A stretch of 64,000 nucleotides of DNA from a virus: IMG/VR virus record IMGVR_UViG_3300025133_007837, positions 32,001-96,000 of that record, one strand, 5' to 3'. The notes below the pieces were generated by a model. It was not told where the DNA came from. It did no database searches and saw only the letters and a list, made by a program, of their open reading frames with translations. Shown here piece by piece: positions 31,390 through 56,574 of the stretch. A program made the position numbers and the translations under genes. The first letter of the stretch is position 1. Each line of letters opens with the position of its first letter.

Positions 31390-32004
31390 ATGAATAAGGG
31401 AAAAAAAGGAAAAGAAACTTATAAGTATGATAAAATTTACTCTCGTAAAGGAGAGTTTTATTTCTTAGATGGAAATGTCTCCTCATGGGTAAACGCTAAC
31501 GAGTTCTTGAGAGGGTGCTGGCTTGAGTACGGTCACGCAGTTGAAGGTAAACAAAATATTGAAGCTATACTTGAATTAAAACCTAGAAACATAATTGATA
31601 TAGGTTGCGGCGGGAATGAGTTTTGTCAACTTATGAAAAATTCCGGAATCCCTAACTCTATAGGAGTAGATTGCTCCTGTCCGGACGCTGATATAATTGC
31701 ATCTGCACACGACCTTTCTTCGATTAACGACAAAGCATACGATCTATTGGTGTCGTTTGACGTTATGGAACATCTTCCCGAAGAGGAGGTAGTTCCTGCT
31801 TTTAAGGAGTTCTCTAGAATTGCTAACAGAATGTTCATCAAGGTGTCTCTTTCTGACATTGCTTCATCTATTGACAACGAAGTTTTACACACCTGCGTCA
31901 AGCCTCATTGGTGGTGGGTAGATCGAGCTGAAGTATATTTTAAGGCAGTTAAATGGTCGTACGATACCACTAGTATTATCATACAAGCAGAAAGCAAACA
32001 ATAA
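31390..32004 (+). CDS. class I SAM-dependent methyltransferase
   Basis: IIDIGCGG, SFDVMEHL. Confidence 0.8.
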   Translation: MNKGKKGKETYKYDKIYSRKGEFYFLDGNVSSWVNANEFLRGCWLEYGHAVEGKQNIEAILELKPRNIIDIGCGGNEFCQLMKNSGIPNSIGVDCSCPDADIIASAHDLSSINDKAYDLLVSFDVMEHLPEEEVVPAFKEFSRIANRMFIKVSLSDIASSIDNEVLHTCVKPHWWWVDRAEVYFKAVKWSYDTTSIIIQAESKQ

Positions 32005-43719: not shown

Positions 43720-44318
43720 AGGAGAAGAAGCAGTTCGCGGCAATGAGTCGCCCAAAGAATAGCAACAGGGAGTGGAACTATATGTACTTTTGGGCGGCAA
43801 GCCAGAAGGAAGCAGAGGTTACATTTAAGGATTTAAAACCCTCCACAAGCCCATATATGGACTATAAATTAGAAAGGATACAAAAAAAGAAATGACTTGA
43901 CTTTTGCTGCACTTTTTGATATACTAATATACTGATACACAACGATTTACGACTTACTGATATATGAACCCTTTACTTTCTCACATATTACATACGGAAC
44001 ACAATTTGATTATATTTTTACTCTGTTTTATTATAGTAGGCTTTTATGTCTGCACCCATTACGAACATTGAACAAAGGATAGAATGGATATTAAGAACAA
44101 TACATATAAAGATTTATATTTAAATTTATTTAAGTTTATTTAAATTAGATTGGTTGTATCGCAAAGATATAATTGGAAATATAGCCGCCGATTTAAAAAA
44201 ATTTAAAAATTTAATTTAATACTTTTTACTCTTTATCTATTATGCTATTCAATACTACTCAACATATAAACAAACATATTAACTTATTTTTATTTATATT
44301 ATTATTTTATTATTTTGG

Positions 44319-44393
44319 CGCGGGGTAGCCAAGTGGTAAGGCGGGAGTCTGCAAAACTCTTACTCGTCGGTTCGATTCCGACCCTCGCGTCCA
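44319..44393 (+). tRNA. tRNA-Cys(GCA)
   Basis: Acceptor CGCGGGG/CCTCGCG, anticodon arm GGAGT-CTGCAAA-ACTCT, U73 discriminator, CCA. Confidence 0.9.
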
Positions 44394-44539
44394 TATTTGT
44401 GAATGAATCGCGGCGAAATACTTAGTCATATTTGTGAATGAATTGGCCCGAAATATTATCATGTAAATATAGCAGCTAACTAACAAAACAACATACAATT
44501 TTTAATTAAATTTATTTAAATTTTTTAATTTATTTTTAT

Positions 44540-44614
44540 AGGCCGGTAGCTCAATGGTAGAGCAGTAGCCTTTTAAGCTATTGGTTGAGGGTTCGATCCC
44601 CTCCCGACCTACCA
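44540..44614 (+). tRNA. tRNA-Lys(TTT)
   Basis: Anticodon arm GTAGC-CTTTTAA-GCTAT, GGTTCGATCCC, CCA. Confidence 0.9.
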
Positions 44615-44852
44615 TATTTGTGAATGGTTTTTTCCGTAATATTATAAGTGAACGAGCTAATGCCAAATATTATAGCCGCCGCCTATAACGTGACACTTTT
44701 AAAAGAAATCTAATAGCATCATTCTTTTATTAAAAAATTTTAAAATAAATTAAAATAAATCAAGTAATCTCAAACATAGTCAAATCAATCATTCTTTTAA
44801 TTAAATTTATTAATTCATTTTAATTCTTTTTTATGTTGACAAGTAGTTCAGC

Positions 44853-45161: not shown

Positions 45162-46091
45162 ATGGATACGACTACATTCCCCGACATAATCGGGCAAGAA
45201 AGCGCGAAGCGTGTACTGGATTTCCATATTGGAGGATTCAAAGCTACTTCAGTAATGCCTCACCTCATGTTTGTCGCGCCCAAGGGTTGCGGCAAAACGA
45301 CGATGGCAAAGGCAGTTGCTCGTACACTCAAGGGTATTGACGATGCCAAACGGTACTTTGAGATTAACTGTTCTACGATTAAGAATGTAAAGCAGTTCTT
45401 TAATCAGTTGGTTATTCCATTGATGCAGGACAGGGACGCTACCATCCTCTTTGATGAGGCAAGTGAGATTCCCAAGGATGTTTCGATGGCCATGCTGACC
45501 ATCCTTAATCCAAACTCCGAGAATCGTACTTCGTTCTCCTTTGAGGACTATACGGTAGATTTTGATTTCAGTCGGCTATCGTTCATGTTCGCCACAACTG
45601 AAACTCAATCCGTATTTCATGCCTTGATGGACAGATTAGAGCGTGTTGATCTTGAGGAATACTCTATTGAGGAGATGGGACAGATAGTTGCCTTGAATCT
45701 CGACATAGACATTGATCCAAAAACATTACAGGATATCGCCTCTGTCTTGCGCGGCAATGCGAGAGCAGCACAAAAAATGGCTCATAAAATTGAGTCTTAT
45801 TGCAGTCAGAAAAAAGTTAAAAGATTTGATTCAACTCATTGGAAAGAATTGAGCAGAATCTTAAACATATTTGCACTTGGCTTAAATGTTACTGAAATCC
45901 AGTTGCTAAACATATTGAAAGATCACAAAGATTGTAGTCTTACTAATTTGTCTGCAAAAACTGGTATCAGCAAAGCAGCAATTCAAAGAGATTTTGAAAT
46001 CTACTTGCAGAAGCATTCTTTAATGGAGATAACAACTGCTGGAAGAAACATAACAGCAAAAGGTTTGGATTATTTAAAACTAATTGCTTGA
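45162..46091 (+). CDS. RuvB-like AAA+ ATPase (Holliday junction helicase homologue)
   Basis: FPDIIGQE, APKGCGKTT, LFDEA, FATTE, ALMDRL, RGNAR, C-terminal wHTH with TAGR. Confidence 0.8.
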   Translation: MDTTTFPDIIGQESAKRVLDFHIGGFKATSVMPHLMFVAPKGCGKTTMAKAVARTLKGIDDAKRYFEINCSTIKNVKQFFNQLVIPLMQDRDATILFDEASEIPKDVSMAMLTILNPNSENRTSFSFEDYTVDFDFSRLSFMFATTETQSVFHALMDRLERVDLEEYSIEEMGQIVALNLDIDIDPKTLQDIASVLRGNARAAQKMAHKIESYCSQKKVKRFDSTHWKELSRILNIFALGLNVTEIQLLNILKDHKDCSLTNLSAKTGISKAAIQRDFEIYLQKHSLMEITTAGRNITAKGLDYLKLIA

Positions 46092-46165: not shown

Positions 46166-46363
46166 ATGGGTATGCGCAATCATACATATAGGTTGGAGGT
46201 TCAACGCCAGACTGGCGGAGGCCTGAAAGTCGTGACCGCTGAACAGTTGGTCAAAATCAATCAACACTCTCATGCATATGAGACAGTTGATAAGGCGGCG
46301 TTTGCCGCTACCATGAACGGCCCCAAGGCCGCTCGACGCACGGTTCCGCGAAAACGGAGCTAG
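46166..46363 (+). CDS. hypothetical protein
   Basis: ORF after TTGACT-17-TATAAT at 46088. Confidence 0.6.
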   Translation: MGMRNHTYRLEVQRQTGGGLKVVTAEQLVKINQHSHAYETVDKAAFAATMNGPKAARRTVPRKRS

Positions 46364-46369
46364 GCGTTA

Positions 46370-46446
46370 GGAGACTTCGGCATGGTGCTGCGCGAGATGC
46401 GCGGACGGGGTTTGTAGGTTACCCTAGTGAAACACCGGAGTTCTCC
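46370..46446 (+). ncRNA. three-way-junction RNA motif, copy B
   Basis: stem-CATGGTG-stem(GAGAT loop)-AC-stem-TGAAACA-stem; same core as 48193-48279 with different paired stems. Confidence 0.7.
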
Positions 46447-46485
46447 CCCATTTCCCCCCCTGAGTAGTAGTTGATAGTTCATTCG

Positions 46486-46514
46486 TACCCCCGCTTCGGC
46501 GGGGGTATTTTTTT
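46486..46514 (+). terminator. intrinsic terminator closing the + strand block
   Basis: TACCCCCGC-TTCG-GCGGGGGTA followed by T7. Confidence 0.9.
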
Positions 46515-46587
46515 GTCCACTTTCCCCATTTTTTCCAAATAAGGCAAATAAAGGGCTATCTTATTATACTATAATCTTTTAGGATCC

Positions 46588-46663
46588 TTAAGTCACTGAC
46601 AGTCAACGAGTTACGGCGCGCGCCTCCCCCCCGCGCGTAACCTCTTGAGTACCAAAGACTTAC
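46588..46663 (-). repeat. 76-bp double-palindrome element, copy 1 (inverted relative to copies 2-8)
   Basis: TTAAGTCACTGACAGTCAACGAGTTAC + 22-bp C-rich spacer + GTAACCTCTTGAGTACCAAAGACTTAC. Confidence 0.9.
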
Positions 46664-46768
46664 GCCTCCCGTAAAACGAGAGGCGTGTCAAGCTTTTATT
46701 TAAAGGGAGGCAGGGGAGTAGTAACCGTGATAGTGCCCATCAAAGTCTCCCCCACCTCCCACGTGCCG

Positions 46769-47656
46769 CTAAGAGGTCACTAAGACATCGTCAGATTTGG
46801 TGACGGGCTTGCGAGTGAGCTTCGCAAAGAACGCCTTGTCCTTCGCTGCCTTCGTCAGCTTCTTGAGGATGGTCTCATTGACCTTGCTTGCGTATTCGTA
46901 CCGGTCGTTTTGCACGGCAGTACGATTCTTACCACTTGTCAGGTGCTGGGTTGCAGCATTATACAAGTTGTAGAGGTTCCGAGCCTCGTCCTCTTTGTAA
47001 GTGGGATTTATCCATATCTTGGAAATCTCCTCACGCAGAGAGTTGCTCAGTACCTTAGAATCACGTAGATTCTTGAGGATGAAATCCCCGATGGTGTTGT
47101 CGATCTTGGTCTCAGCTAAGAGACCGTAGTCTTCACCGATTGTATCGAATGCTGTTAGAGCAGAGTCGATAGCCCTAGACACTCCGCTCAGGTCGAGCTT
47201 GCTGGAGTGTTTCTGGTTGAAGGTGTACGTCGAGCGTAAAGCCTTCATGCCGTTGGTGCATACCTCGCGCAACGCTGCCAAGTCCAAGCCTGCGAAACAG
47301 GATCGGTCGTAGGAGTTGCGCCCTGTAATACGCATACCGACGGTATCGCCTACACCGGGAACAGCGATGTTCTTTCCGGGCAGGTCGTACGTTGCGTACA
47401 TGGTAGCACCATCACGCGCCACCCTGACTTCCTTGTTATAGTCTAAACCTTTGTCGGTTAAGACTGACTCGATAGAGTCAACCAAGGTTGAGTTTAGCAA
47501 CAAGCCATACTTGTCACTCGTTACACCTAGCACTTGGCCGGTGTCTGTCCTGCGCGTTCCCCAAAAGCCAGCATCGCTGCCGTCTTGGGTTTGCAGTTGC
47601 TCCATAACTACAGGGAAGTCGTAGTTGCCGCTTGTTGGTCTTGTTGTTCTTGCCAT
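46769..47656 (-). CDS. DUF932 / TIGR03299-like phage-plasmid protein
   Basis: RRTDTGQVLGVTSDKY, NSYD, REVCTNGM, KHS, NLYNLYNAAT. Confidence 0.8.
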   Translation of the reverse strand: MARTTRPTSGNYDFPVVMEQLQTQDGSDAGFWGTRRTDTGQVLGVTSDKYGLLLNSTLVDSIESVLTDKGLDYNKEVRVARDGATMYATYDLPGKNIAVPGVGDTVGMRITGRNSYDRSCFAGLDLAALREVCTNGMKALRSTYTFNQKHSSKLDLSGVSRAIDSALTAFDTIGEDYGLLAETKIDNTIGDFILKNLRDSKVLSNSLREEISKIWINPTYKEDEARNLYNLYNAATQHLTSGKNRTAVQNDRYEYASKVNETILKKLTKAAKDKAFFAKLTRKPVTKSDDVLVTS

Positions 47657-47694
47657 AACGTCTTTTTATATATTAACAGTTACTGTATTGAAAG

Positions 47695-47907
47695 TCAAGA
47701 TAATAATTCTTTTATTCGGTTAGCATTTAAAATTCCATCAAGCTCATGCTCAATTTCTTTAGCCAGCTTAACTTCTGATGGTTCATACAATTCGTGCCAC
47801 TTGATAATGGCCATGCATTTACCTTTTAGGCCAGCCACCTTGCAGCGTAAGGATAGGATTTTGTCTTGCGCTTCGTGTAGTTTCTTTAGGTTTTCTAACT
47901 CGCTCAT
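47695..47907 (-). CDS. hypothetical protein, leaderless
   Basis: TTGACT-17-TATAAT, then ATG 6 nt later. Confidence 0.65.
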   Translation of the reverse strand: MSELENLKKLHEAQDKILSLRCKVAGLKGKCMAIIKWHELYEPSEVKLAKEIEHELDGILNANRIKELLS

Positions 47908-47958
47908 GTCTTAATTATAACAGTAACTTTATTGAAAGTCAAGCTTTTAAATTTAAAT

Positions 47959-48018
47959 AGTTGGTGTCGATTAACGTCTGCAGCGGCTAACCGAAGGTGA
48001 GCTATTCCCGCACCAACT
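47959..48018 (-). ncRNA. candidate ~60-nt structured RNA with its own promoter
   Basis: TTGACT-17-TATACT at 48053-48025; ends pair AGTTGGTG/CACCAACT; internal hairpin; no ORF. Confidence 0.55.
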
Positions 48019-48070
48019 TTAATAAGTATAGCACATTCTGACGCTCAAGTCAAGCCTTAATAGTGATGTC

Positions 48071-48146
48071 TTAAGTCGTTGAGCATCAAGGACTTACGCG
48101 CGGGGGGGAGGCCGCGGCCGTAACTCTCTGATTACCAAGGACTTAC
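48071..48146 (+). repeat. 76-bp double-palindrome element, copy 2
   Basis: TTAAGTCGTTGAGCATCAAGGACTTAC-GCGCGGGGGGGAGGCCGCGGCC-GTAACTCTCTGATTACCAAGGACTTAC. Confidence 0.92.
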
Positions 48147-48151
48147 AAGAC

Positions 48152-48190
48152 AAAAAAAGGGCGAGGGGGGCGAAACAAAACCCCCCTCGC
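48152..48190 (-). terminator. intrinsic terminator
   Basis: GCGAGGGGGG/CCCCCCTCGC stem followed by T7 on the minus strand. Confidence 0.85.
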
Positions 48191-48192
48191 AT

Positions 48193-48279
48193 TCCGGGCA
48201 CGTGTGGCTGTTTCATGAGGCACCTGAACCGTCCACCTGTATCAGGATCTCCCTGATCACCATGGCCACTGAGCCCGGA
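48193..48279 (-). ncRNA. three-way-junction RNA motif, copy A
   Basis: GTGGC-CATGGTG-ATCAGG-GAGAT-CCTGAT-AC-AGGTG..TGCCT-CATGAAACA-GCCAC inside TCCGGGC/GCCCGGA. Confidence 0.7.
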
Positions 48280-48295
48280 TGGGTTCAGAAAAGCG

Positions 48296-48730
48296 TCACG
48301 CCTTTACGGCGTCCCAGTCGCTTAAGTCTTCAGCCGAAATCGAAAGCTCTTCGTGAATGTTGAGTTCCGGCGTACGCATTTTGTGCGTGTACAGTTCTTG
48401 CGTGTACGGAATGGAGTCGATGAATTCCTTTGCCCAATCGACCGCCAAGAAGTCTGCTCCGCCCTTCTTGCCCTTAAAGACTTCGCCGCCGAGGTCTTGG
48501 ATGCAGCGCGTGCGGTAGATGTCGAGAACAGCTTTGCTGAAGCGTTTCTCGTCTGTCCAGAATACAGCCAGCTTGTCCGTGCGCCAGTCAAGCTCGCCGT
48601 TCGTAGCCATCCAGTTGTAGAAGGCGTAGTAACGTCTCGTCATCTCCTCTTGGTCGCTGCCCTCCATGCCGATGATCAGGCTGTCCTCGTCGATAACCTG
48701 CCGATAGTAGTTTATTTTTTCGCTAAACAT
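48296..48730 (-). CDS. hypothetical protein (GC-rich coding)
   Basis: ORF with promoter at about 48808 and a leader hairpin GCTGCT-GGGGAAA-AGCAGC. Confidence 0.7.
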   Translation of the reverse strand: MFSEKINYYRQVIDEDSLIIGMEGSDQEEMTRRYYAFYNWMATNGELDWRTDKLAVFWTDEKRFSKAVLDIYRTRCIQDLGGEVFKGKKGGADFLAVDWAKEFIDSIPYTQELYTHKMRTPELNIHEELSISAEDLSDWDAVKA

Positions 48731-48916
48731 TTGTTTTTTAGTTTTTCAATTGCTGCTTTTCCCCAGCAGCGATAAGAGTATTATTGCATATTTTAGAGCT
48801 AAAGTCAAGTCTTTTTTTATCTTTTTATATAGTCGTTTAGCCAGAACACAACAAAAATTGATAGAACGAAAAGTATGATACCCATTTCTTTATAATATAG
48901 GAAACTTGACGGGCTG

Positions 48917-49552
48917 TCAATGTTTTTTGTAGTCAATGTTTTCGACTGTTTCATCCCAACAGGCTCGACAGTCTTTGCAGCTATTGTCTTGCTTTGGTGC
49001 TGGGCAGGTAAAACTTTCGTCAGTTTTCGCTCCGCTCGTGGTCAAGCCTAAACGACTTGCCAAGGCGGTTGGCGGTGCGCCGTCCATCATAATTGCAGAC
49101 AATCGAATGATAAGATTGTCAGGCTTACGGCCTAGTTTCATCCATTCGCTGACAAAGGAGTATTCCCTAGTCGGCAGCCAAAATTTAATGTGAGGCAACC
49201 GCCTTGCAACCTCTGCAATCTTTTCGAGATGCCAAACGCCCTGAACGTCACCAGCATCATGCCAACGAAAAAAGCCAGTCTTTTCCCTTTTCCCGATCAT
49301 AAAAACCATCATGTCCACCCAATCAATTTGGTCTAATGATTTAAGCCGTTTCTTTTGCGCGGCCTTTACGTTAGGAAAAACATAACGTCCTTTGCGAGCG
49401 TAGCAAAAAGAACAAATCGAATTGATAACCTCGACCAACTTCGAACCCCTGATACAGTCCTCTGCTGGTGTGCTGTAACTAAAGCCGGGCATCTTCGACG
49501 GCACGGAAAGTGAACCAACGCGCCCCTCTGCAAGTTTGATAGTAAGTCTCAT
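48917..49552 (-). CDS. phage Gp88-like protein (radical-SAM-like Cys motifs)
   Basis: SKMPG, ICSFCYA.KGRY, FFRWHDAGD, FWLPTRE, IIRLS, CPA...CKDCRACW. Confidence 0.75.
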   Translation of the reverse strand: MRLTIKLAEGRVGSLSVPSKMPGFSYSTPAEDCIRGSKLVEVINSICSFCYARKGRYVFPNVKAAQKKRLKSLDQIDWVDMMVFMIGKREKTGFFRWHDAGDVQGVWHLEKIAEVARRLPHIKFWLPTREYSFVSEWMKLGRKPDNLIIRLSAIMMDGAPPTALASRLGLTTSGAKTDESFTCPAPKQDNSCKDCRACWDETVENIDYKKH

Positions 49553-49587
49553 AACGCGAAAGAGTATAGCAGATTAAGCCTCACTTG

Positions 49588-49830
49588 TCAAGCCCATAAT
49601 TTAGCCCAACCCTCAGGGCTGTATCCGCTGGCTACGAACTCCCTATCATCCGCACTTAAAGACTTAAGCGCAACCTGTAGCAGCTCGCCCTGATTCAAGT
49701 CCCAAAGCTCATGCCCTAATATTGTCACACTATAGGGCTTGCCGGTTCCCCGACACGGGCCGGTGAATGTATAGGTTCCCTCTGTGTGGTTCTGCTCGTA
49801 AGTGCAGTTTGTATGTATATAACGTCCCAT
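49588..49830 (-). CDS. hypothetical protein
   Basis: Own promoter; LSADDREF..SG..PEGW. Confidence 0.7.
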   Translation of the reverse strand: MGRYIHTNCTYEQNHTEGTYTFTGPCRGTGKPYSVTILGHELWDLNQGELLQVALKSLSADDREFVASGYSPEGWAKLWA

Positions 49831-49858
49831 AACGCGAAACAGTATACCAGATTAAAGG

Positions 49859-49978
49859 CTACTTGTCAAGCCCTTTTTTTCTATCATATGACCCTTTTCC
49901 CCTTTTAGGTTTGTGTACGCGCTCGCCTGTGTTCCACTTGACGCGCTTTCGAATAATAGGTTTCCTTTTCTCACTCAC
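49859..49978 (-). CDS. 39-aa ArfA-like basic peptide
   Basis: MSEKRKPIIRKRVKWNTGERVHKPKRGKGSYDRKKGLDK; GTG start 7 nt after TTGACA-17-TACTAT. Confidence 0.65.
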   Translation of the reverse strand: MSEKRKPIIRKRVKWNTGERVHKPKRGKGSYDRKKGLDK

Positions 49979-50030
49979 TTTATTAATAGTAACACAAATT
50001 TTGCGACATGTCAAGTATTTTTTTTATGTT

Positions 50031-50106
50031 ATAAGTCGTTGAGCATCAAGGACTTACGCGCGGGGGGGAGGCCGCGGCCGTAACTCTCTGATTACCAAGG
50101 ACTTAG
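50031..50106 (+). repeat. 76-bp double-palindrome element, copy 3
   Basis: Identical to copy 2 over the internal 74 bp. Confidence 0.92.
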
Positions 50107-50114
50107 GACAAGAG

Positions 50115-50157
50115 AAAACCCCCCACCAAGGAAAACCAAAAACCTCGGCAGGGGGGT
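50115..50157 (-). terminator. intrinsic terminator
   Basis: G/C-rich stem with G-U pairs (CCCCCC..CCGAGG/CCTTGG..GGGGGG) followed by a T-tract on the minus strand. Confidence 0.7.
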
Positions 50158-50159
50158 CA

Positions 50160-50395
50160 CGTTATGAGTGAAAAGTATTTAGGAAACCTGTTACATTTTT
50201 TGAAGTGCTACTTCTAACTAGGTGCTAACGTAGGTAGTATTTAGGTTTCCTAAGTTTCGAGTTGCTGCCGCACCACCAACAGTAAAACGGGCGTGTGAAA
50301 TCTGGCTGGATTCTAGCACACAGGGGTATTTAACTCCGTCAACTCTAAATCGTTCTGACTGTCACGCTGCGTTTAAAGCGTAGCGTCAGATTGGG
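50160..50395 (-). ncRNA. candidate multi-stem ncRNA or structured 3' UTR
   Basis: No ORF in the track; stems TCTGAC/GTCAGA, GTGTG/CACAC, GTTG-G-TG/CA-G-CAAC, TTAGGAAACCT/AGGTTTCCTAA. Confidence 0.5.
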
Positions 50396-50398
50396 TAG

Positions 50399-50611
50399 CT
50401 AGATCGCTACCGTGCTGTTAATTCTATCCCAGCGGAATCGCTTCCACAATCCAGAATCGGCATCTTTTGCAGCCATGCCAGCGGAATTGTCGTTCTCGCT
50501 TCGGTTTGCGAACTGTTCATCCATTTCTACGCGGTAGAAAAAGGATTTGCTGCTGTCGTTTTCCTGTCCTTCATGGACAGCCGGTGTATAGTTTATTAGG
50601 AACTTCTTCAT
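50399..50611 (-). CDS. small protein with a WYL-like C-terminal motif
   Basis: D.DSGLWKRFRWDRI; start set at ATG 50611. Confidence 0.5.
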   Translation of the reverse strand: MKKFLINYTPAVHEGQENDSSKSFFYRVEMDEQFANRSENDNSAGMAAKDADSGLWKRFRWDRINSTVAI

Positions 50612-50691
50612 AACTTTGTTTTTTATTTGTTTTTTATTCTTCTTATTTCTCACTTCCAATAAATTAAGTATACCACAAACTGCACTACAAG

Positions 50692-51042
50692 TCAAGCCTT
50701 TTTAACAAATATTTCTTTGTTTTTGATAAAAACCTTCTCATAAATACCACGCATCTCATTACCCTTAAGATCAACAAAAAAGTCATTCTTATAAGGGTTG
50801 TACTTGACAAGCTCAAACTCCTCGACAGTACCATTGCCAAAGCTTTGCTTGCTGGCCAAGTCACCAGCGACGTAAGCGTGAACGTTTTTACGTTTGGTCT
50901 TCCGTACCTTGGCTAGTCCTGCTGGCTGAACATGGAACTTCACGTTTTCCAGCGCGACAATATCAGCGTGTTTAATGACTTTGCCTCTATTACGAACCGA
51001 GAGGCGTTTCTTATGTAGATTGTAGTAAACCTGTACTCTCAT
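50692..51042 (-). CDS. phage hypothetical protein
   Basis: VYYNLHKK..SVR, RKNVHAYV.G, YNPYK; own promoter. Confidence 0.75.
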   Translation of the reverse strand: MRVQVYYNLHKKRLSVRNRGKVIKHADIVALENVKFHVQPAGLAKVRKTKRKNVHAYVAGDLASKQSFGNGTVEEFELVKYNPYKNDFFVDLKGNEMRGIYEKVFIKNKEIFVKKA

Positions 51043-51066
51043 AACTTTTATTAGTATAACACGAAC

Positions 51067-51324
51067 TTAAGCACTTGTCAAGCACTCATGCCAATATTCA
51101 TTGATCTCTTTTCGGAGTTCGTACTCGTCGAGTCGATTGCTCCAGCACTCACGCATGAAGTCATCAAAGCCGGGGTCTTTCGTCAACGAGGCAACGATAC
51201 CTGAGTATCTTTCGTGTTCAGACTCTATGTTATAGAGTTTAATCATGAGGTCATCACAAAACTCTTCCCAGCTAGTATTTAATATCGATATAATAGATCT
51301 TCTTTCCCTAACAACCATAAGCAT
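51067..51324 (-). CDS. hypothetical protein
   Basis: Own promoter TTGACA-17-TATGAT. Confidence 0.6.
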   Translation of the reverse strand: MLMVVRERRSIISILNTSWEEFCDDLMIKLYNIESEHERYSGIVASLTKDPGFDDFMRECWSNRLDEYELRKEINEYWHECLTSA

Positions 51325-51409
51325 ATCATAGCATAAAATACGAAATATGTCAAGACTAAATACGACAAATATAGATTTTTTTTTCGTTTATAGATTTTTT
51401 TTCGTTTGC

Positions 51410-51485
51410 GTAAGTTACTGACTGTCAAGGAGTTACGGGTGGGGGTGGGGCCGCGAGCCTAAGTCATTGGTAATCAACGACTTAG
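51410..51485 (+). repeat. 76-bp double-palindrome element, copy 4
   Basis: GTAAGTTACTGACTGTCAAGGAGTTAC-22bp-CTAAGTCATTGGTAATCAACGACTTAG. Confidence 0.9.
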
Positions 51486-51644
51486 GAGATCACTAATTGA
51501 CCCGAACCCACGATTAAAAGCCACGCGCTCGGTGCGCGCCTTCCTGACCCGCTGACGCTCCACCTTGGCGGCGGTAGCGTTAGCCCGTTCCCGTTTCCAA
51601 TTCTCAACATTTTTGAGAATGGTCTCATTAGTATTTTGAGGCAT
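51474..51644 (-). CDS. 56-aa basic protein whose stop codon lies inside element copy 4
   Basis: Hand-translated MPQNTNETILKNVENWKRER...SDLLSR*. Confidence 0.55.
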   Translation of the reverse strand: MPQNTNETILKNVENWKRERANATAAKVERQRVRKARTERVAFNRGFGSISDLLSR

Positions 51645-51697
51645 AAATTTAAAAGAGCGTCACGCTGCGTTTAAAGCGTAGCACTCAAAACGACGGC

Positions 51698-51997
51698 TCA
51701 AAAGCCATCGTTGTAATCGTCGTAGCAACCGTAGTCCTCGTCGGTTCCCCAACCCGCGCTGGCCAACGCATCTGCGTCAGCTTCGGCGTCGGAGTTGAAG
51801 CCGTCCCAAGGCTCGTCTGCCTCGGAGTCGCCAGACTCCTCAAATGACCAGACCGTTTCTGTCTCGCCATCACGTTCGCGCATTACGTCGGCGTTGATGC
51901 CGTTGGCGAACTCAATCGCGTCCTCAAGCCCGTCATGGCTCACGTCGAACATACGGAACAAACCGTCCTCATCCTTAACGTAGTAGTGGTTATTCAT
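51698..51997 (-). CDS. highly acidic phage protein
   Basis: DADALASAGWGTDEDYG; D/E-rich; own promoter. Confidence 0.75.
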   Translation of the reverse strand: MNNHYYVKDEDGLFRMFDVSHDGLEDAIEFANGINADVMRERDGETETVWSFEESGDSEADEPWDGFNSDAEADADALASAGWGTDEDYGCYDDYNDGF

Positions 51998-52292
51998 GTT
52001 ATTATTTCTCTCACTCACTGGTAAAATGGTATCACACTTTAGGGACAAAGTCAAGCCCTTTTTCAACTTTTTTTTCACTTTTTTTTCGCGGAACAAACGC
52101 CTTGCTGACTGGCTCCTCGCGTGGGATAAATGGGTGCTTTTTCTTTGCGACTTCTGCGAGAGCGTGTGGCGACCACCGCGCTCCGTAAACCTTGGACATT
52201 GTTTTTTCGTTGTTCATTCTCTCACTCACTGGGAATATGATAGCACACTTTGCCGAGGATGTCAACACCTTTTTTCACTTTTTTTTCATGTC

Positions 52293-52368
52293 GTAAGTCG
52301 TTGACTATCAGTGACTTGCGCGGCGCAAGGGGGTGGCTACCCTAAGTTCCTGATACTCAGAGGCTTAG
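52293..52368 (+). repeat. 76-bp double-palindrome element, copy 5
   Basis: GTAAGTCGTTGACTATCAGTGACTTGC-22bp-CTAAGTTCCTGATACTCAGAGGCTTAG. Confidence 0.88.
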
Positions 52369-52381
52369 CAATAGTAAAATC

Positions 52382-52556
52382 TTATTTCTTACCGAAACAA
52401 GTGGGGCAAGACTCAAAAAATTTACACCAACAAACCTCTTCGGCGTCCTGCGCGAAAACAGCCTCGTCCTGCCATTCATCACACACCGCATCAAACTCTG
52501 CCCGCGCTTGCGGATCAGCCTCGAAAACCTCCTCACAACTAATCATATCTCTCATA
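52382..52556 (-). CDS. small acidic Cys-rich protein (start approximate)
   Basis: MRDMISCEEVF...CWCKFFESCPTCF; lies with its promoter between copies 5 and 6. Confidence 0.55.
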
Positions 52557-52620
52557 ACAGAAAACAGTATAACACAAACGACGAGAATGTCAACACTTTT
52601 TTTACTTTTTTTTTCATAGC

Positions 52621-52696
52621 GTAAGTTGTTTACCATCAAGGAGTTACACGCGGCATAGGGGCCGCGGCCCTAACTTGTTCTGGATCAGTTACTTAC
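52621..52696 (+). repeat. 76-bp double-palindrome element, copy 6
   Basis: GTAAGTTGTTTACCATCAAGGAGTTAC-22bp-CTAACTTGTTCTGGATCAGTTACTTAC. Confidence 0.85.
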
Positions 52697-52702
52697 AACT
52701 CA

Positions 52703-52972
52703 TCAGAAAAGATCGAAGTTGAACGGGACGAGAAGAGCTTTATCGAACCAAGTTTGTGGGACGACTTTACACTCTACATCTTCAAGCCATGCGTTCGTGT
52801 GGCGCGATGTCGTTTGGCTGAATTTGTCTTCGCAACGGTAGTATGTCGTGCCAATCTTGGCAGCAACAGGCGTTCCGTAAGAGAAGAAAAAAACAGCGTG
52901 TTTTGCTCTGTCCGATAGTCTATCATTGAAGTGGACTTCGGTTTGGTTTGTTGCTATTAGTTTTAGTCTCAT
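52703..52972 (-). CDS. phage hypothetical protein
   Basis: FFSYGTPVAA...SQTTSRH.N.W; own promoter. Confidence 0.75.
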   Translation of the reverse strand: MRLKLIATNQTEVHFNDRLSDRAKHAVFFFSYGTPVAAKIGTTYYRCEDKFSQTTSRHTNAWLEDVECKVVPQTWFDKALLVPFNFDLF

Positions 52973-53015
52973 TAGATAAAGTATAACAGTTTATTGTTTA
53001 AAAGTCAAGCGTTTT

Positions 53016-53747
53016 TTAGGTTTCGTGACAGTCGCACTCTTCGCAAATGACGCCCCAGTCGTATGGGTTGCCCCATTCTCGGACTTCGTTTTCTTTGCTG
53101 TCTTCTGCTTCGCATAGATCGCAAGTCAGCACCTTACCCGTGAAGCGGTCAAGTGTTTGCCCTGCTTCGTTTGTTTTGTATATCTTCTTTTCCATTTTAG
53201 TAATTATCTTTGTGAAATCTACCCTTGGGCGATCTATCCTCAAAGCACTTGGTTATCTCAACGACTTGGAGAATGTCTCCGTATTTTGTCGTGTTGTTAA
53301 CTTTTTGTTCAAGGAACTGGTCAGTCATCTCCTGCTTGGTTGTACCAAGCGGGAAAGTGTTACCCATAATTGAATCACAGGTGGCAAGGTAATGATTGCC
53401 CGTGTAGTTAGGGTTTCGCTTCACCTTAAAGGTGGCATTCAGGAAGTTTATGTATTCTTTATTATCTCTCATAACGCAATTAGTATAGCAGATTTTCGGT
53501 AAAAGTCAAGCTTTATTTCACTTTTTTATTCGCATTCGTGGCATTGGAACCAATCGGTGTCAGTCCATTCATTGGCCTCTTCGCGGCTAATGCGAAGCTC
53601 TTCGCCGCATCCGCAGCAGGACACCAGCACCTTGTCGGTGGTCACTTGGCCATTGTCGATTGGGTGAACTATTTCGTTAGTATTCATATTCATTGTATTT
53701 CTCTCACTCACTGGATATAGCTTACCAGAAAAATCGGTAAAAGTCAA
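53016..53747 (-). other. three small hypothetical CDSs (ending at 53016, 53197 and 53526), two with CxxC pairs
   Basis: ORF track; promoters at about 53509 and 53747. Confidence 0.55.
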
Positions 53748-53784
53748 GCACTATTTTCACTTTTTTTTACTTTTTTTTATTACT

Positions 53785-53860
53785 GTAAGTTACTGATAAT
53801 CAAGGACTTACGAGCGCCGGAAGGGCCGCGGCCGTAACTTATTGATTACCAAGCAATTAC
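53785..53860 (+). repeat. 76-bp double-palindrome element, copy 7
   Basis: GTAAGTTACTGATAATCAAGGACTTAC-22bp-GTAACTTATTGATTACCAAGCAATTAC. Confidence 0.9.
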
Positions 53861-54157
53861 AACTCTAAAGAAACACTTTTCTGGCGGCAACTCTTTCCAA
53901 GTCCAGTAAGGCGAAGTCATCGACATTTTGTAAGTTCCGAGATGGACTAAATCTTTCCATTTTCTTAAATCTTCAGAATATTGCAATTTATACATTATAA
54001 ATGGTTCAAGATTCGTTAATTCAAAATAGATACCGCTTTCTAAACCATAAGCATTACCATTTGGCAAAACCTTTTGTTGAACAGGAACAATCTTTAAAGT
54101 CGGGTTAGCATTTAAGCTAACAGAGAATAAGAATAGAAAAAGGATAATTTTTTTCAT
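53846..54157 (-). CDS. exported hypothetical protein; stop codon inside element copy 7
   Basis: Signal peptide; YKLQYSEDLRKW...FFRV C-terminal pattern. Confidence 0.65.
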   Translation of the reverse strand: MKKIILFLFLFSVSLNANPTLKIVPVQQKVLPNGNAYGLESGIYFELTNLEPFIMYKLQYSEDLRKWKDLVHLGTYKMSMTSPYWTWKELPPEKCFFRVVIAW

Positions 54158-54679
54158 TTAGAGTTTATAGAATGCGTGTTGACCAATCACCTTAACGGGC
54201 TTCTGTCCCTTGGCCCAGTAAGGCTTCTTTTTCATCCATGTGGCATGGTAGTGGTTAGCATAGCCAACATAGTCACGGCTCAACAGCTTAACACTCTTGG
54301 CCAAGCGTAGTGCGTACTTGGCTTGCGGTGTCTTGAGTAGATGCTCAAGGCTCTTGATGCTCTTGCCATTCCAGCAACTGAATTGCCATTTGGCACGGCA
54401 TACCTGCTCTGGTGTCTGGTGTCGCTCCATTGCTCGCTGTGCTATAACAGCAGCCACGGCATACATGCCCTTGTTGCCTTCGCCTCTAGCTTCTGCCAGT
54501 ATGGTGATGGCTACTACCTTATGCTCTTGCGTATGCTCTTGCCCTGCTACCTTGCATATGGTAGCCATGCCCCATAGTACAGCAAGCACGATGAGTAGCT
54601 TCTCTACTGTATAGTTTTGATGTCCGTATTTCATTAGGTTTGGTTTCTTGTATTTCATTTGACTTAACTCCAATTCCAT
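54158..54679 (-). CDS. SleB/Hydrolase_2 cell wall hydrolase
   Basis: ILAEARGEG, AVAAVI..R, QFSCWN, NHYHA, PYWA, IGQHAFY. Confidence 0.88.
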   Translation of the reverse strand: MELELSQMKYKKPNLMKYGHQNYTVEKLLIVLAVLWGMATICKVAGQEHTQEHKVVAITILAEARGEGNKGMYAVAAVIAQRAMERHQTPEQVCRAKWQFSCWNGKSIKSLEHLLKTPQAKYALRLAKSVKLLSRDYVGYANHYHATWMKKKPYWAKGQKPVKVIGQHAFYKL

Positions 54680-54855
54680 TCTGGTGCGTTTCCTTTGTAT
54701 GGCTTACTCAAGCGGATTGCTTCGAGTGCCTCATTAACCAGACGCTTATGGTTGCGTGCTTGTGTTTGTGCTGCCTCAAGACGCTTGAGCGCGTCAGGCT
54801 TGGGCTTACTTATCATCTTTCTGGCCATTTGGTATGCTGTCATTCTCTCACTCAC
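54664..54855 (-). CDS. hypothetical protein
   Basis: Own promoter; GTGAGTGAGAGA leader. Confidence 0.6.
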   Translation of the reverse strand: MSERMTAYQMARKMISKPKPDALKRLEAAQTQARNHKRLVNEALEAIRLSKPYKGNAPEWNWS

Positions 54856-54909
54856 TTGTTATATGGTATCAGATTTTAGGCTAAAAGTCAAGCTTTATTT
54901 TCATCTTTT

Positions 54910-55143
54910 TTACCCTTGGTAACGGTAGCTTCCCAGTAGATCACCGCCCCAACCGGAGGCGATCTCTTGGCCGTCTCTTTCCAGCACCCATGGCCACATG
55001 TTGCCGTCAGCCTCTTGGGCTAGTTCGAGGGCTGCGTCCATTGCTGAATGGTCTTTGCCTTCTTCGCCTGTGAACTTCTTGCTGCTCACGCGGTTGGTAT
55101 CTTCGTTCTTCCAACTTAATTCGTATAACATCTTATCTCTCAT
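54910..55143 (-). CDS. acidic hypothetical protein
   Basis: Own promoter TTGACT-17-TATACT; start set at ATG 55143. Confidence 0.6.
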   Translation of the reverse strand: MRDKMLYELSWKNEDTNRVSSKKFTGEEGKDHSAMDAALELAQEADGNMWPWVLERDGQEIASGWGGDLLGSYRYQG

Positions 55144-55218
55144 AACTGGATATAGTATAGCACAATCCCCGCAAAAGTCAAGCGTTATTTTCATTTTTTT
55201 AAAAAAAGTTTTAGTGTC

Positions 55219-55295
55219 GTAAGTCATTGAGTATCAGAGACTTACAGCGGCGGGCAGGGTGAGCCTCGCTAACTCTTTGAGGCTTAGTGGTTTAC
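55219..55295 (+). repeat. double-palindrome element, copy 8 (23-bp spacer)
   Basis: GTAAGTCATTGAGTATCAGAGACTTAC-23bp-CTAACTCTTTGAGGCTTAGTGGTTTAC. Confidence 0.82.
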
Positions 55296-55296
55296 G

Positions 55297-55488
55297 TTAG
55301 TCTTCGCAAAGACCTTCGTAGCCGAACCACCCACAGTCCTCCTCCACCGGCGAGGCGAAGTCGTGCTGCTGCATCTCTCGTGGGTCGATGCGATACCCGT
55401 CGTGCGAACCCTCAACGGGCGTGACGACCTGTTTGTCATCCTGCGCGTTGAGCCAATCGATGTGTTGGTTCTTCATTCTATCCCTCAT
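55297..55488 (-). CDS. acidic hypothetical protein, first gene of the minus-strand island
   Basis: Promoter TTGACA-17-TATCAT; stop 2 nt from copy 8. Confidence 0.6.
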   Translation of the reverse strand: MRDRMKNQHIDWLNAQDDKQVVTPVEGSHDGYRIDPREMQQHDFASPVEEDCGWFGYEGLCED

Positions 55489-55888
55489 AACTGGTAAAAT
55501 GATAGCACAGGTTGAGACATATGTCAACAATAAAGTGGGGGTATTTATGAAAAAAAACACGACACAATAGTCTTGACACGACGGGGGTGGCCCTTTTTTC
55601 AGTCTCCCCGAGCCTTCTAAGGGTTTCTAATTTACAACTTCGAAAAAATCCGCGGCTATATATAGAAAAAAAGCGCTTCTGATATATAAAATGTGTAAAA
55701 GTTGATATGACGCCTTTTGTAGACCCGGAGATAGTCAAAGATGCCGAAGAAAAAGATCTAGAACGGGTTATAATAAAAGGGGAGAGAGTGCTTGAAGTTT
55801 GCACCAATCCAAAATGCTTCGAAGACACATGTAAAGGTGAATGTGAATACAGTGAAGACGAGTAATACAAGTGCAGAAAGGATAAATA

Positions 55889-56077
55889 ATGCCAATACCA
55901 AACCCCAAAGGAGAAGAGAAGAGTGAATTCTTGAATAAATGTATGGGAGACGACGTAATGACTACAGAGTTCGCTGACTCTAAACAAAGATACGCGGTCT
56001 GCCAATCCAAATGGAAAAAATCAAAAAGCGCCGAGTATACCCCAGAAGATAAAGATTCCCAAGTAGTTATCTACTAA
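55889..56077 (+). CDS. small phage protein
   Basis: MPIP.P..E...F...CM....QRYAVC..KW. Confidence 0.7.
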   Translation: MPIPNPKGEEKSEFLNKCMGDDVMTTEFADSKQRYAVCQSKWKKSKSAEYTPEDKDSQVVIY

Positions 56078-56574
56078 TGGACATCAAGACAATAGATAAT
56101 AAGGGACTTAAGGAATTAGTGTCCCTACGCTTCCCCAATAATCAGAAAGATCCAACTACAGACAGAGACTACGCGTATCTAGACTTAGATTGGGTGGAAA
56201 ACGAAGCCTACCAAGGCTACAAACACTGGTTGTCTTTGTTCAACTTTGGTAGAGGCATACATAACTCTGACTGGAAGCCCAACTTTGACTGCGAGGACTT
56301 AGCCAACTCATTTAAAATATATTTAAAGCTGCTGCACGCGGAAGCCAACCCTTATACTTTCTCTGAGCGCAGAAAAGGTAAGGAGAACCTCGTAAATACA
56401 GAATCAGCTTTAGTGGGGACAATCTTCTATAGAAACTCAACAATGAGCGCTCACTCAATAAACGTTTTCTTTGACGACGAAGAAGACTCGCCCAAATTCT
56501 TTGAGCCGATGTACGGCAAGTTTATAAACCTTAACCAAAACGAACAGGACAGCATATGGTACGTAGAATTTTGA
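56077..56574 (+). CDS. hypothetical protein, possible transglutaminase-like cysteine protease fold
   Basis: FDCEDLA...AHSIN...FFEP, suggestive of a Cys/His/Glu triad. Confidence 0.45.
   Translation: MDIKTIDNKGLKELVSLRFPNNQKDPTTDRDYAYLDLDWVENEAYQGYKHWLSLFNFGRGIHNSDWKPNFDCEDLANSFKIYLKLLHAEANPYTFSERRKGKENLVNTESALVGTIFYRNSTMSAHSINVFFDDEEDSPKFFEPMYGKFINLNQNEQDSIWYVEF

Follow-up and report, generated by a model that had tools for sequence, protein, structure and literature searches.

Paired palindromic elements in a small-gene island of an uncultured marine phage: possible protein-bound boundaries of gene cassettes

The stretch of DNA analyzed here (termed the window) is 64,000 nt in length and comprises positions 32,001 to 96,000 of the IMG/VR virus record IMGVR_UViG_3300025133_007837. 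It is part of the genome of a large uncultured phage. An island of small genes at ~46.5–55.6 kb of the window is punctuated by eight copies of a 76–77 bp element, and the question arises as to what these repeats are and what they do. A preliminary description, made from the sequence alone, likened them to integron-type exchange sites delimiting promoter and gene cassettes, with a protein-binding or regulatory role as a fallback. It is the fallback that fits best. There is about an even chance that the elements are protein-bound (IHF-like) modules which serve as boundaries and upstream-promoter modules, and which are also patches of homology for a shuffling of cassettes similar to that of the promoter-early stem-loop (PeSL) mobile regulatory cassettes of T4-type phages (PMC2839356; PMC4122927).

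Each element consists of two imperfect 27-bp palindromes with a GC-rich spacer of 22 or 23 nt between them, and the palindromes are spaced start to start by 49 nt in seven copies and by 50 nt in one. The window was searched on both strands with the core pattern TAAGTNNNTGANNNTCANNGANTTA, allowing up to 3 mismatches, and this yielded 32 strand-matches, compared to 1.29 ± 1.39 in 100 shuffles, none of which reached 32. Thirty-one of the matches are the 16 palindromes of the eight elements, and the other is a lone 3-mismatch match at position 43925. The scan thus confirms the eight copies, their starts and their architecture as first described. No copy was found elsewhere in the window at this threshold, and the earlier statement that the elements are confined to the island is true to that extent. 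Copies 2 and 3 share 91% identity over 93 nt.

The elements display a regular relationship to genes (Table 1). Two open reading frames (ORFs) end inside copies 4 and 7, and stop codons at positions 55297, 52703 and 52382 are 1, 6 and 13 nt from elements 8, 6 and 5, respectively, in agreement with the first description. Separate terminators, apart from the elements themselves, are present ahead of copies 2 and 3: a strong intrinsic terminator on the − strand at 48190–48161, just ahead of copy 2 in the direction of transcription, and a terminator-like hairpin ahead of copy 3, seen by eye only. A sigma-70-like − strand promoter follows copies 2–6 and 8, as found by pattern, and copy 7, as found by eye, in keeping with the order of terminator or stop, element and promoter first described for copies 2–8. 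Copy 1 is at a different type of site. It is found where + strand genes, ending in a terminator at 46485–46508, converge with the − strand island; its spacer is C-rich on the + strand, and it is the inversion partner of copy 2 in a related phage described below.

The element belongs to a family. An exact-pattern scan of IMG/VR matched at least 119 stretches, and the family sample consists of 120 sequences: 118 loci, a 19-kb stretch of a relative of the window (termed G001) and a slice of the window. These 120 sequences contain, among the matches listed, 320 adjacent palindrome pairs 38–62 nt apart, which is a lower bound for the family and answers the suggestion that related phage contigs be scanned. 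The palindrome spacing is constant within a contig. It is 50 nt in 152 pairs, and other classes have spacings of 41, 42, 48, 49, 51–53 and 58 nt. Fourteen whole viral records were also examined, six of which were judged complete (140–195 kb). The palindrome is present 6–20 times per strand in each of the 14, compared to 0–1 times for a reversed-pattern control. The elements are clustered in one region of ~2–13 kb per record (shortest where a contig ends within the cluster), with the exception of one genome, G005, which has two clusters; copies recur 4–10 times within ~10 kb. In the one genome with terminal repeats, the cluster is near an end.

A collection of genomes from 185,579 species (one genome per species) shows the full double-palindrome pattern in only two contigs, both from metagenome-assembled bins; thus the family is a phage element and not a bacterial one. 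A blastn search (word size 11, E-value up to 1) with a typical element against 50,697 phage records gave no match, a single 27-bp site being below the detection threshold of the search. Rfam at gathering scores detects three tRNAs in the window and no match to the element. No description of the element was found in searches of the literature outside subscription journals and supplements.

Are the palindromes DNA sites or RNA stems? A sample of 141 unique elements of the 50-nt spacing class gives the half-site consensus GTAASTCRYTGA. Within the palindromes, the number of Watson-Crick pairs observed and the number expected under independence are 73 and 63.7 at S5/S23, 53 and 51.2 at R8/N20, and 86 and 86.9 at Y9/R19; further counts are 47 compared to 48.4, and 72 compared to 79. 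There is also no pairing covariation between the left and right palindromes in this sample, and the variable positions change independently in all four half-sites. Because the arm positions vary independently, selection is on the sequence rather than on a stem, as would be the case with a dimeric DNA-binding protein. The palindromes are thus predicted to be double-stranded DNA–protein sites rather than RNA stems.

The spacer differs between spacing classes. In the window's 49-nt class and in the main 50-nt class, the spacers fold no better than shuffled sequences (z = −0.35 and −0.44), whereas the 42- and 58-nt classes have spacers that are real hairpins (mean z = −2.1 and −2.6). In the 58-nt class, the spacer sequence is GACCCC-TTCG/TACG-GGGGTC with a T run after it. 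Members with spacings of 58–60 nt (L069, L092, L004, L008, L035, L076 and L102) thereby carry a canonical-looking intrinsic terminator between their palindromes. Spacers were described as G-rich on one strand. This holds in the window, with copy 1 reversed, but not for the family as a whole: 133 of 320 spacers are without strand skew, and the elements of one island can point either way, with 56 of 74 in the more common direction. Eighteen close pairs of elements have a mean identity of 0.88 and 0.87 in the two palindromes compared to 0.64 in the spacer, and are too noisy for crossover mapping. One locus (L113:9178) is 100% identical in its palindromes to two others (L037:1777 and L098:2180), with only 65%–70% identity in the spacer. 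Compared to its surroundings, the spacer is thus the faster-changing part, although it retains its length and G+C content.

The promoters show a fixed geometry with respect to the elements. The distance from the element edge to the next − strand −35 box at copies 2–8 (Table 1) changes in increments close to one helical turn. In the family as a whole, 48 unique gaps to outward promoters display a 10.5-bp periodicity (Rayleigh R = 0.53). When the window and its close relative are left out, 40 gaps remain and the periodicity is still present (R = 0.46, p = 2e-4), whereas periods of 9, 9.5 and 12 bp give no signal. This geometry fits a protein-bound, bent module that is seen from one face of the helix; activation and repression are not distinguished by it. 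A strict promoter regular expression matched few flanks. The direction of genes around elements, as determined from ORFs, is (−,−) in 23 cases and (+,+) in 19, with many undecided.

Many relatives also have promoters that point into the element. Inward TTGAC boxes 35–39 nt from the edge are found in 86 of 600 flanks and at 66 of 300 elements, 20 of which have them on both sides, and the predicted start is 2–3 nt ahead of the first palindrome. Copies 2–8 of the window have no inward promoter. Sigma-54-like motifs show a similar tendency: 29 of 46 in 959 kb are within 130 nt of an element. Good boxes of this type (TGGCAC/T-N5-TTGCT) are found by elements at L021 4725 and 6916, L005 1919 and L131 1775, and some sigma-54-type boxes in relatives form convergent pairs around one element. 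The window has just two sigma-54-like motifs, neither of them near an element. A sigma-54 activator was considered and set aside, as the PF00158 matches in the phages are weak and of a generic AAA+ type, and include the RuvB-like gene described below; the phages yielded no true activator gene of this kind.

What protein might bind? Read inward, the half-site of the family is W-A-TCAR-NNNN-TTA. At positions that were free in the search pattern, W is present in 128 and R in all of the 141 elements, and the A of WATCA fits only in part, being present in 74. The IHF consensus pattern, WATCARNNNNTTR, is contained in the half-site GTAASTCRYTGA on each strand. The lambda record has no IHF annotation, and the consensus pattern itself was applied to lambda instead; as a control, it matches attP exactly three times, compared to 0.07 expected. 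There are 16 matches in the window, of which 9 are inside the elements (1% of the window). Six of the eight elements have at least one exact match, and copy 7 contains three.

The phages do not appear to provide such a protein themselves. The HU/IHF family (PF00216) and the ParB family (PF02195) are each absent from the 14 element-bearing records, including the six complete genomes, and no DNA-binding domain was recognized in 20 island ORFs searched against Pfam (one scan also took in three ORFs beyond the island) or in 10 ORFs, six of them in the island, searched against PHROGs. The predicted binder is therefore either an IHF-type protein of the host, which we would put at even chances, or an unrecognized phage protein, a doubtful second candidate. 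Likenesses to ECF-sigma promoters, FNR/CRP sites, LacI-family operators and TyrR/TrpR operators were considered and dropped, as their spacings do not appear to fit.

The elements are also sites of rearrangement. G001, an IMG/VR record with nine elements, is 75%–90% identical to the window where the two can be aligned. In G001, the DUF932-containing segment that separates copies 1 and 2 is reversed, and within the inverted segment the middle cassette is replaced by a homologue of the 80-aa gene cassette listed in Table 1. In a four-way alignment, the palindrome and flank on the inner side of each copy have swapped partners in G001, while those on the outer side and the 3′ part of the spacer are unmoved at both junctions. 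Both crossovers are consequently placed inside a shared 19-nt block of the spacer, TTACGCGCGGGGGGGAGGC. This block is the longest identical stretch common to copies 1 and 2, and thus the inversion fits homology-driven and site-specific exchange alike.

Elsewhere in the window and G001, cassettes are replaced and reordered, in some cases at elements and in others at promoter repeats. The 80-aa gene is absent from its place in G001 and present inside the inverted segment there; therefore this cassette moved without an element at its borders. When loci are compared, the two flanks of an element remain neighbors in 58 of 369 informative cases, compared to 118–176 of ~430–480 at random control sites. 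Synteny breaks are thus about twofold enriched at elements. Rearranged flanks number 26 at elements and 3–10 at control sites, and the end points of high-scoring segment pairs near elements are weakly enriched (78, compared to 55.4 expected). The suggestion that gene content and order vary exactly at the elements holds in part: the inversion and the low number of collinear flanks agree with it, but changes occur at promoter repeats as well.

Rearranged junctions are also seen in metagenome assemblies. Contigs from four marine runs break inside the near-identical copies 2 and 3. In addition, contig joints attach position 52088, 52603 (two runs) or 53732 to position 55297, the base after copy 8, so that the right edge of this copy is joined to different left partners in three of the four runs. 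As these are assembled contigs from mixed strains, the joints show natural variants and not events in one population.

The proposed mechanism can be put together as follows. Each element would be a DNA docking module: two dimer-type palindromes 41–60 bp apart, with a GC-rich filler. A DNA-bending protein of the IHF kind would bind them, most likely that of the host, since these phages encode no protein of this kind. The modules would be situated between the transcription units of an early-type island driven by host-type promoters, and the bound, bent DNA may act as a boundary and as an upstream-promoter module. Such a role would explain the helical register of the promoters and the starts at the element edge in many relatives. 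Because the same 76–77 bp sequence recurs several times in a short region, the copies, together with the repeated promoters, may also act as patches of homology, at which general recombination would invert, delete and reshuffle cassettes. If so, the island is a testable case of how large lytic phages may organize a host-takeover region: a host architectural protein may be recruited to phase and insulate many strong promoters, and small accessory genes may be gained, lost and inverted in modules by way of the same repeats. As a cis-element of uncultured phages from aquatic settings, the family would be very widespread and conserved in sequence, with the double palindrome as a practical marker for early regions and cassette borders in metagenomic phage contigs.

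Several points weigh against such an IHF-bound module. The promoters are regular-expression matches and not mapped starts. Only 9 of the 32 half-sites in the window are exact to the IHF consensus, and only about half of the family has the A of WATCA. Conservation extends to G21, A22, the outer G/C and the S positions, which are free in the IHF consensus, and this suggests a more specific protein, possibly encoded by the phage. The spacing of the palindromes, 41–60 bp between lineages, is unlike one fixed protein–protein geometry, and the reading would require that the host have IHF. The inward promoters, the T runs after the element and the UUCG/UACG hairpins of the 58-nt class suggest that part of the function may be at the level of RNA or transcription. 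If the palindromes are operators of an unrecognized dimeric regulator of the phage and not IHF sites, an early or middle protein would bind all elements at once and shut off or insulate host-polymerase transcription of the early island. A 12-bp half-site conserved where the IHF consensus is free would be expected of such operators, as would the confinement of the elements to an early-type island, the greater conservation of palindromes over spacers in the 18 close pairs, and the inward promoters, from which the first palindrome would be at about +16, where repressors classically bind. This explanation is possible, if somewhat unlikely: the scanned island ORFs show no DNA-binding domain, no family but the RuvB-like ATPase is shown across all element-bearing genomes, and the match to the IHF consensus would be a coincidence.

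The elements could also be crossover sites of a dedicated cassette-exchange system, with a recombinase that is host-encoded or of an unknown family. The palindromes would be bound and strands exchanged in the spacer, so that inverted pairs lead to inversion and direct pairs to excision and reinsertion of promoter and gene cassettes. The general layout of recombinase sites, two binding palindromes about a central spacer, is present; the copy 1/copy 2 inversion is reciprocal with both junctions in the spacer, and the joints at the edge of copy 8 and the excess of rearranged flanks agree with it. A RuvB-like branch-migration ATPase is encoded in most of the records and often beside the island. 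However, tyrosine recombinases (PF00589), serine recombinases (PF00239) and Y1 transposases (PF01797) are each found in none of the 14 records and none of the six complete genomes, which extends the earlier remark that no recombinase was recognized in the window. The 22–23 bp spacer is far longer than known overlap regions, the polarity such a system needs is missing, cassettes move at promoter repeats without elements, the crossover is in the longest identical block as homology-driven exchange predicts, and the helical phasing with promoters is left unexplained. The dedicated system therefore seems improbable, also in the form of a catalyst, from the host or of a new family, that binds all four half-sites and exchanges strands inside the spacer, perhaps with the RuvB-like protein as motor. 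If it were true, the early island would behave like a promoter-carrying integron whose cassettes are inverted, excised and reinserted. What stands of the first reading is that the elements delimit promoter and gene cassettes, together with its protein-binding fallback; the integron-like, site-specific part is not supported, given also that the cassettes have their own promoters and that ordinary homology explains the inversion equally well. A low probability is likewise given to a function of the element as an RNA or by means of its own transcription. It would then be an element-length transcript or convergent pair, or else a bidirectional terminator or a collision device, by which read-through from one cassette into the next is stopped. 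The sigma-70-like promoters that would start transcription just before so many elements are in line with this, as are sigma-54-like boxes 26–39 nt from the edge, the T runs after the element, the hairpin spacers of the 42- and 58-nt classes with the TTCG/TACG loops of the latter, and five elements of the window in or within 13 nt of which genes end without another terminator. Against it are the lack of covariation within or between palindromes, the 49- and 50-nt class spacers that fold like shuffles, the absence of any Rfam match, and copies 2–8 of the window, which have neither an inward promoter nor a T run on the transcribed strand. A mini-CRISPR (repeat, spacer, repeat and promoter) was rejected because of the invariably GC-rich spacer, the differences between the two repeats and the presence of promoters on both strands.

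Table 1. The eight elements and associated features of the island (positions in the window; for the elements, the strand is that on which the spacer is G-rich)
Feature	Position	Strand	Remarks
Copy 1	46588–46663	−	Reversed relative to copies 2–8
Copy 2	48071–48146	+	Promoter −35 at 48053, gap 17 nt
Copy 3	50031–50106	+	Promoter −35 at 50014, gap 16 nt
Copy 4	51410–51485	+	Stop of 56-aa ORF (51474) inside; promoter −35 at 51353, gap 56 nt
Copy 5	52293–52368	+	Promoter −35 at 52265, gap 27 nt
Copy 6	52621–52696	+	Promoter −35 at 52593, gap 27 nt
Copy 7	53785–53860	+	Stop of 103-aa ORF (53846) inside; −35-like TTGACT at 53747–53742 (by eye), gap 37 nt
Copy 8	55219–55295	+	23-nt spacer; promoter −35 at 55181, gap 37 nt
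Segment between copies 1 and 2	46664–48070	−	DUF932 gene (46769–47656) and 70-aa ORF
80-aa gene cassette	49587–49849	−	Between 64-nt promoter direct repeats 49539–49602 and 49817–49880 (78% identical)
RuvB-like AAA+ gene	45162–46091	+	Adjoins island

The window encodes a DnaE-type polymerase, a DnaB-like helicase, ribonucleotide reductase, an rIIA-like protein and three tRNAs, and the nearest polymerase of an isolated phage has ~32% identity. A megablast search with the island against the 50,697 phage records gave no match. The island has a G+C content of 0.41–0.49, above that of most of the window, and contains 30 sigma-70-like promoter matches compared to 12.2 ± 3.8 expected, nearly all on the − strand. 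The island sequence (46300–56200) is found nearly whole (at least 80% of sampled words) in 20 marine metagenome runs from 19 studies; thus this phage lineage is widespread in the sea. No RNA data set is among the runs listed. No function for DUF932 was found in the literature.

The RuvB-like protein is full-length: it matches residues 6–306 of Thermotoga RuvB (E-value = 1.7e-12), and the C-terminal winged helix of RuvB is present. The gene is found in 12 of the 14 element-bearing phage records and in all six complete ones. It adjoins the island in 6 of 11 genomes examined (the window, G001, G004, G007, G009 and G013) and is not beside it in G002, G003, G005, G006 and G008; G005 has two RuvB-like paralogues along with its two element clusters. 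As a dedicated partner of the elements the gene was set aside, since it is beside the island in only these six genomes.

Other features of the region can be mentioned. A cell-wall hydrolase (Pfam Hydrolase_2; PHROG endolysin) is encoded at 54158–54679 on the − strand, in an early-type cassette between elements 7 and 8. A 33-nt repeat (CATATTTGTGAATG...), present three times, flanks the tRNA-Cys and tRNA-Lys genes at 44390–44650, in a stretch with a G+C content of 0.31. Many island genes begin 6–10 nt from the −10 hexamer, and their mRNAs are apparently leaderless; examples are L099 1315–1350, L113 9340–9372 and positions 55131–55160 of the window.

How do the elements compare with known systems? 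They are set apart from attC sites, invertase and resolvase sites, REP/BIME repeats, parS-type arrays and the families in Rfam. They are similar to attC, hix, res and shufflon sfx sites in that they mark cassette boundaries, coincide in part with stop codons, are built of inverted repeats and show one inversion between inverted copies. Unlike these, they have no integrase or invertase gene, a long spacer, no consistent polarity and cassettes with their own promoters, and it is the sequence and not the structure that is conserved. With respect to integrons, no IntI-type tyrosine recombinase is found in the 14 records or the six complete genomes, there is no pairing covariation, and the island is rich in promoters, where integron cassettes are promoterless. 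The 14 records likewise have no serine invertase or resolvase and no ParB protein of a ParB/parS or KorB-type array.

The BIME/RIP sequences of E. coli are composite extragenic repeats in which REP palindromes flank an IHF site. Like these, the phage elements are extragenic composites (~80–100 bp) of palindromes and an IHF-type site, found between transcription units. The order is reversed in the phage elements, where IHF-like palindromes flank a GC-rich core, and no REP sequence is present; the RAYT/Y1 transposase is absent from the 14 records, and the two contigs noted above are the only ones in the genome collection with the full pattern. IHF sites are also present upstream of lambda pL and Mu Pe. 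The consensus half-palindrome of the phage elements contains the IHF consensus (exact in 9 of the 32 half-sites of the window), with the degenerate positions W, R and R as in the consensus, and the elements precede strong promoters by ~40–140 bp, on a single face of the helix. They differ in having two consensus copies back to back in a perfect dyad, with extra conserved positions, and in being always paired around a GC-rich spacer, 4–10 per genome; IHF binding to them is a prediction only. The injection-stop region of phage T5 was considered as a comparable element and rejected, because it is a single non-coding repeat region with DnaA boxes (10.1101/866236).

The closest described systems appear to be the PeSL cassettes. 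Their stem-loops are simple, lineage-specific terminator hairpins of the forms GN-loop-CN and A3-4G3-loop-C3T3-4 (PMC4122927). The conserved part of the present elements differs, since it consists of two sequence-specific 27-bp palindromes that have been retained in very diverged phages; stem covariation is absent, the palindromes are in helical register with promoters, and the hairpin-like middle is the least conserved part. In a PeSL, a terminator-like stem-loop is joined directly to an early promoter of the sigma-70 type; here, a promoter is found 16–56 nt past each of copies 2–8, but the element is not itself a simple terminator hairpin, and separate terminators are ahead of copies 2 and 3. 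In both systems a repeated composite regulatory motif is found beside near-consensus sigma-70 early promoters and is concentrated in a plastic region of small ORFan genes. In both, cassettes are inserted, deleted and replaced between close relatives, as is seen here between the window and G001, and the repeated motifs may provide patches of homology for recombination.

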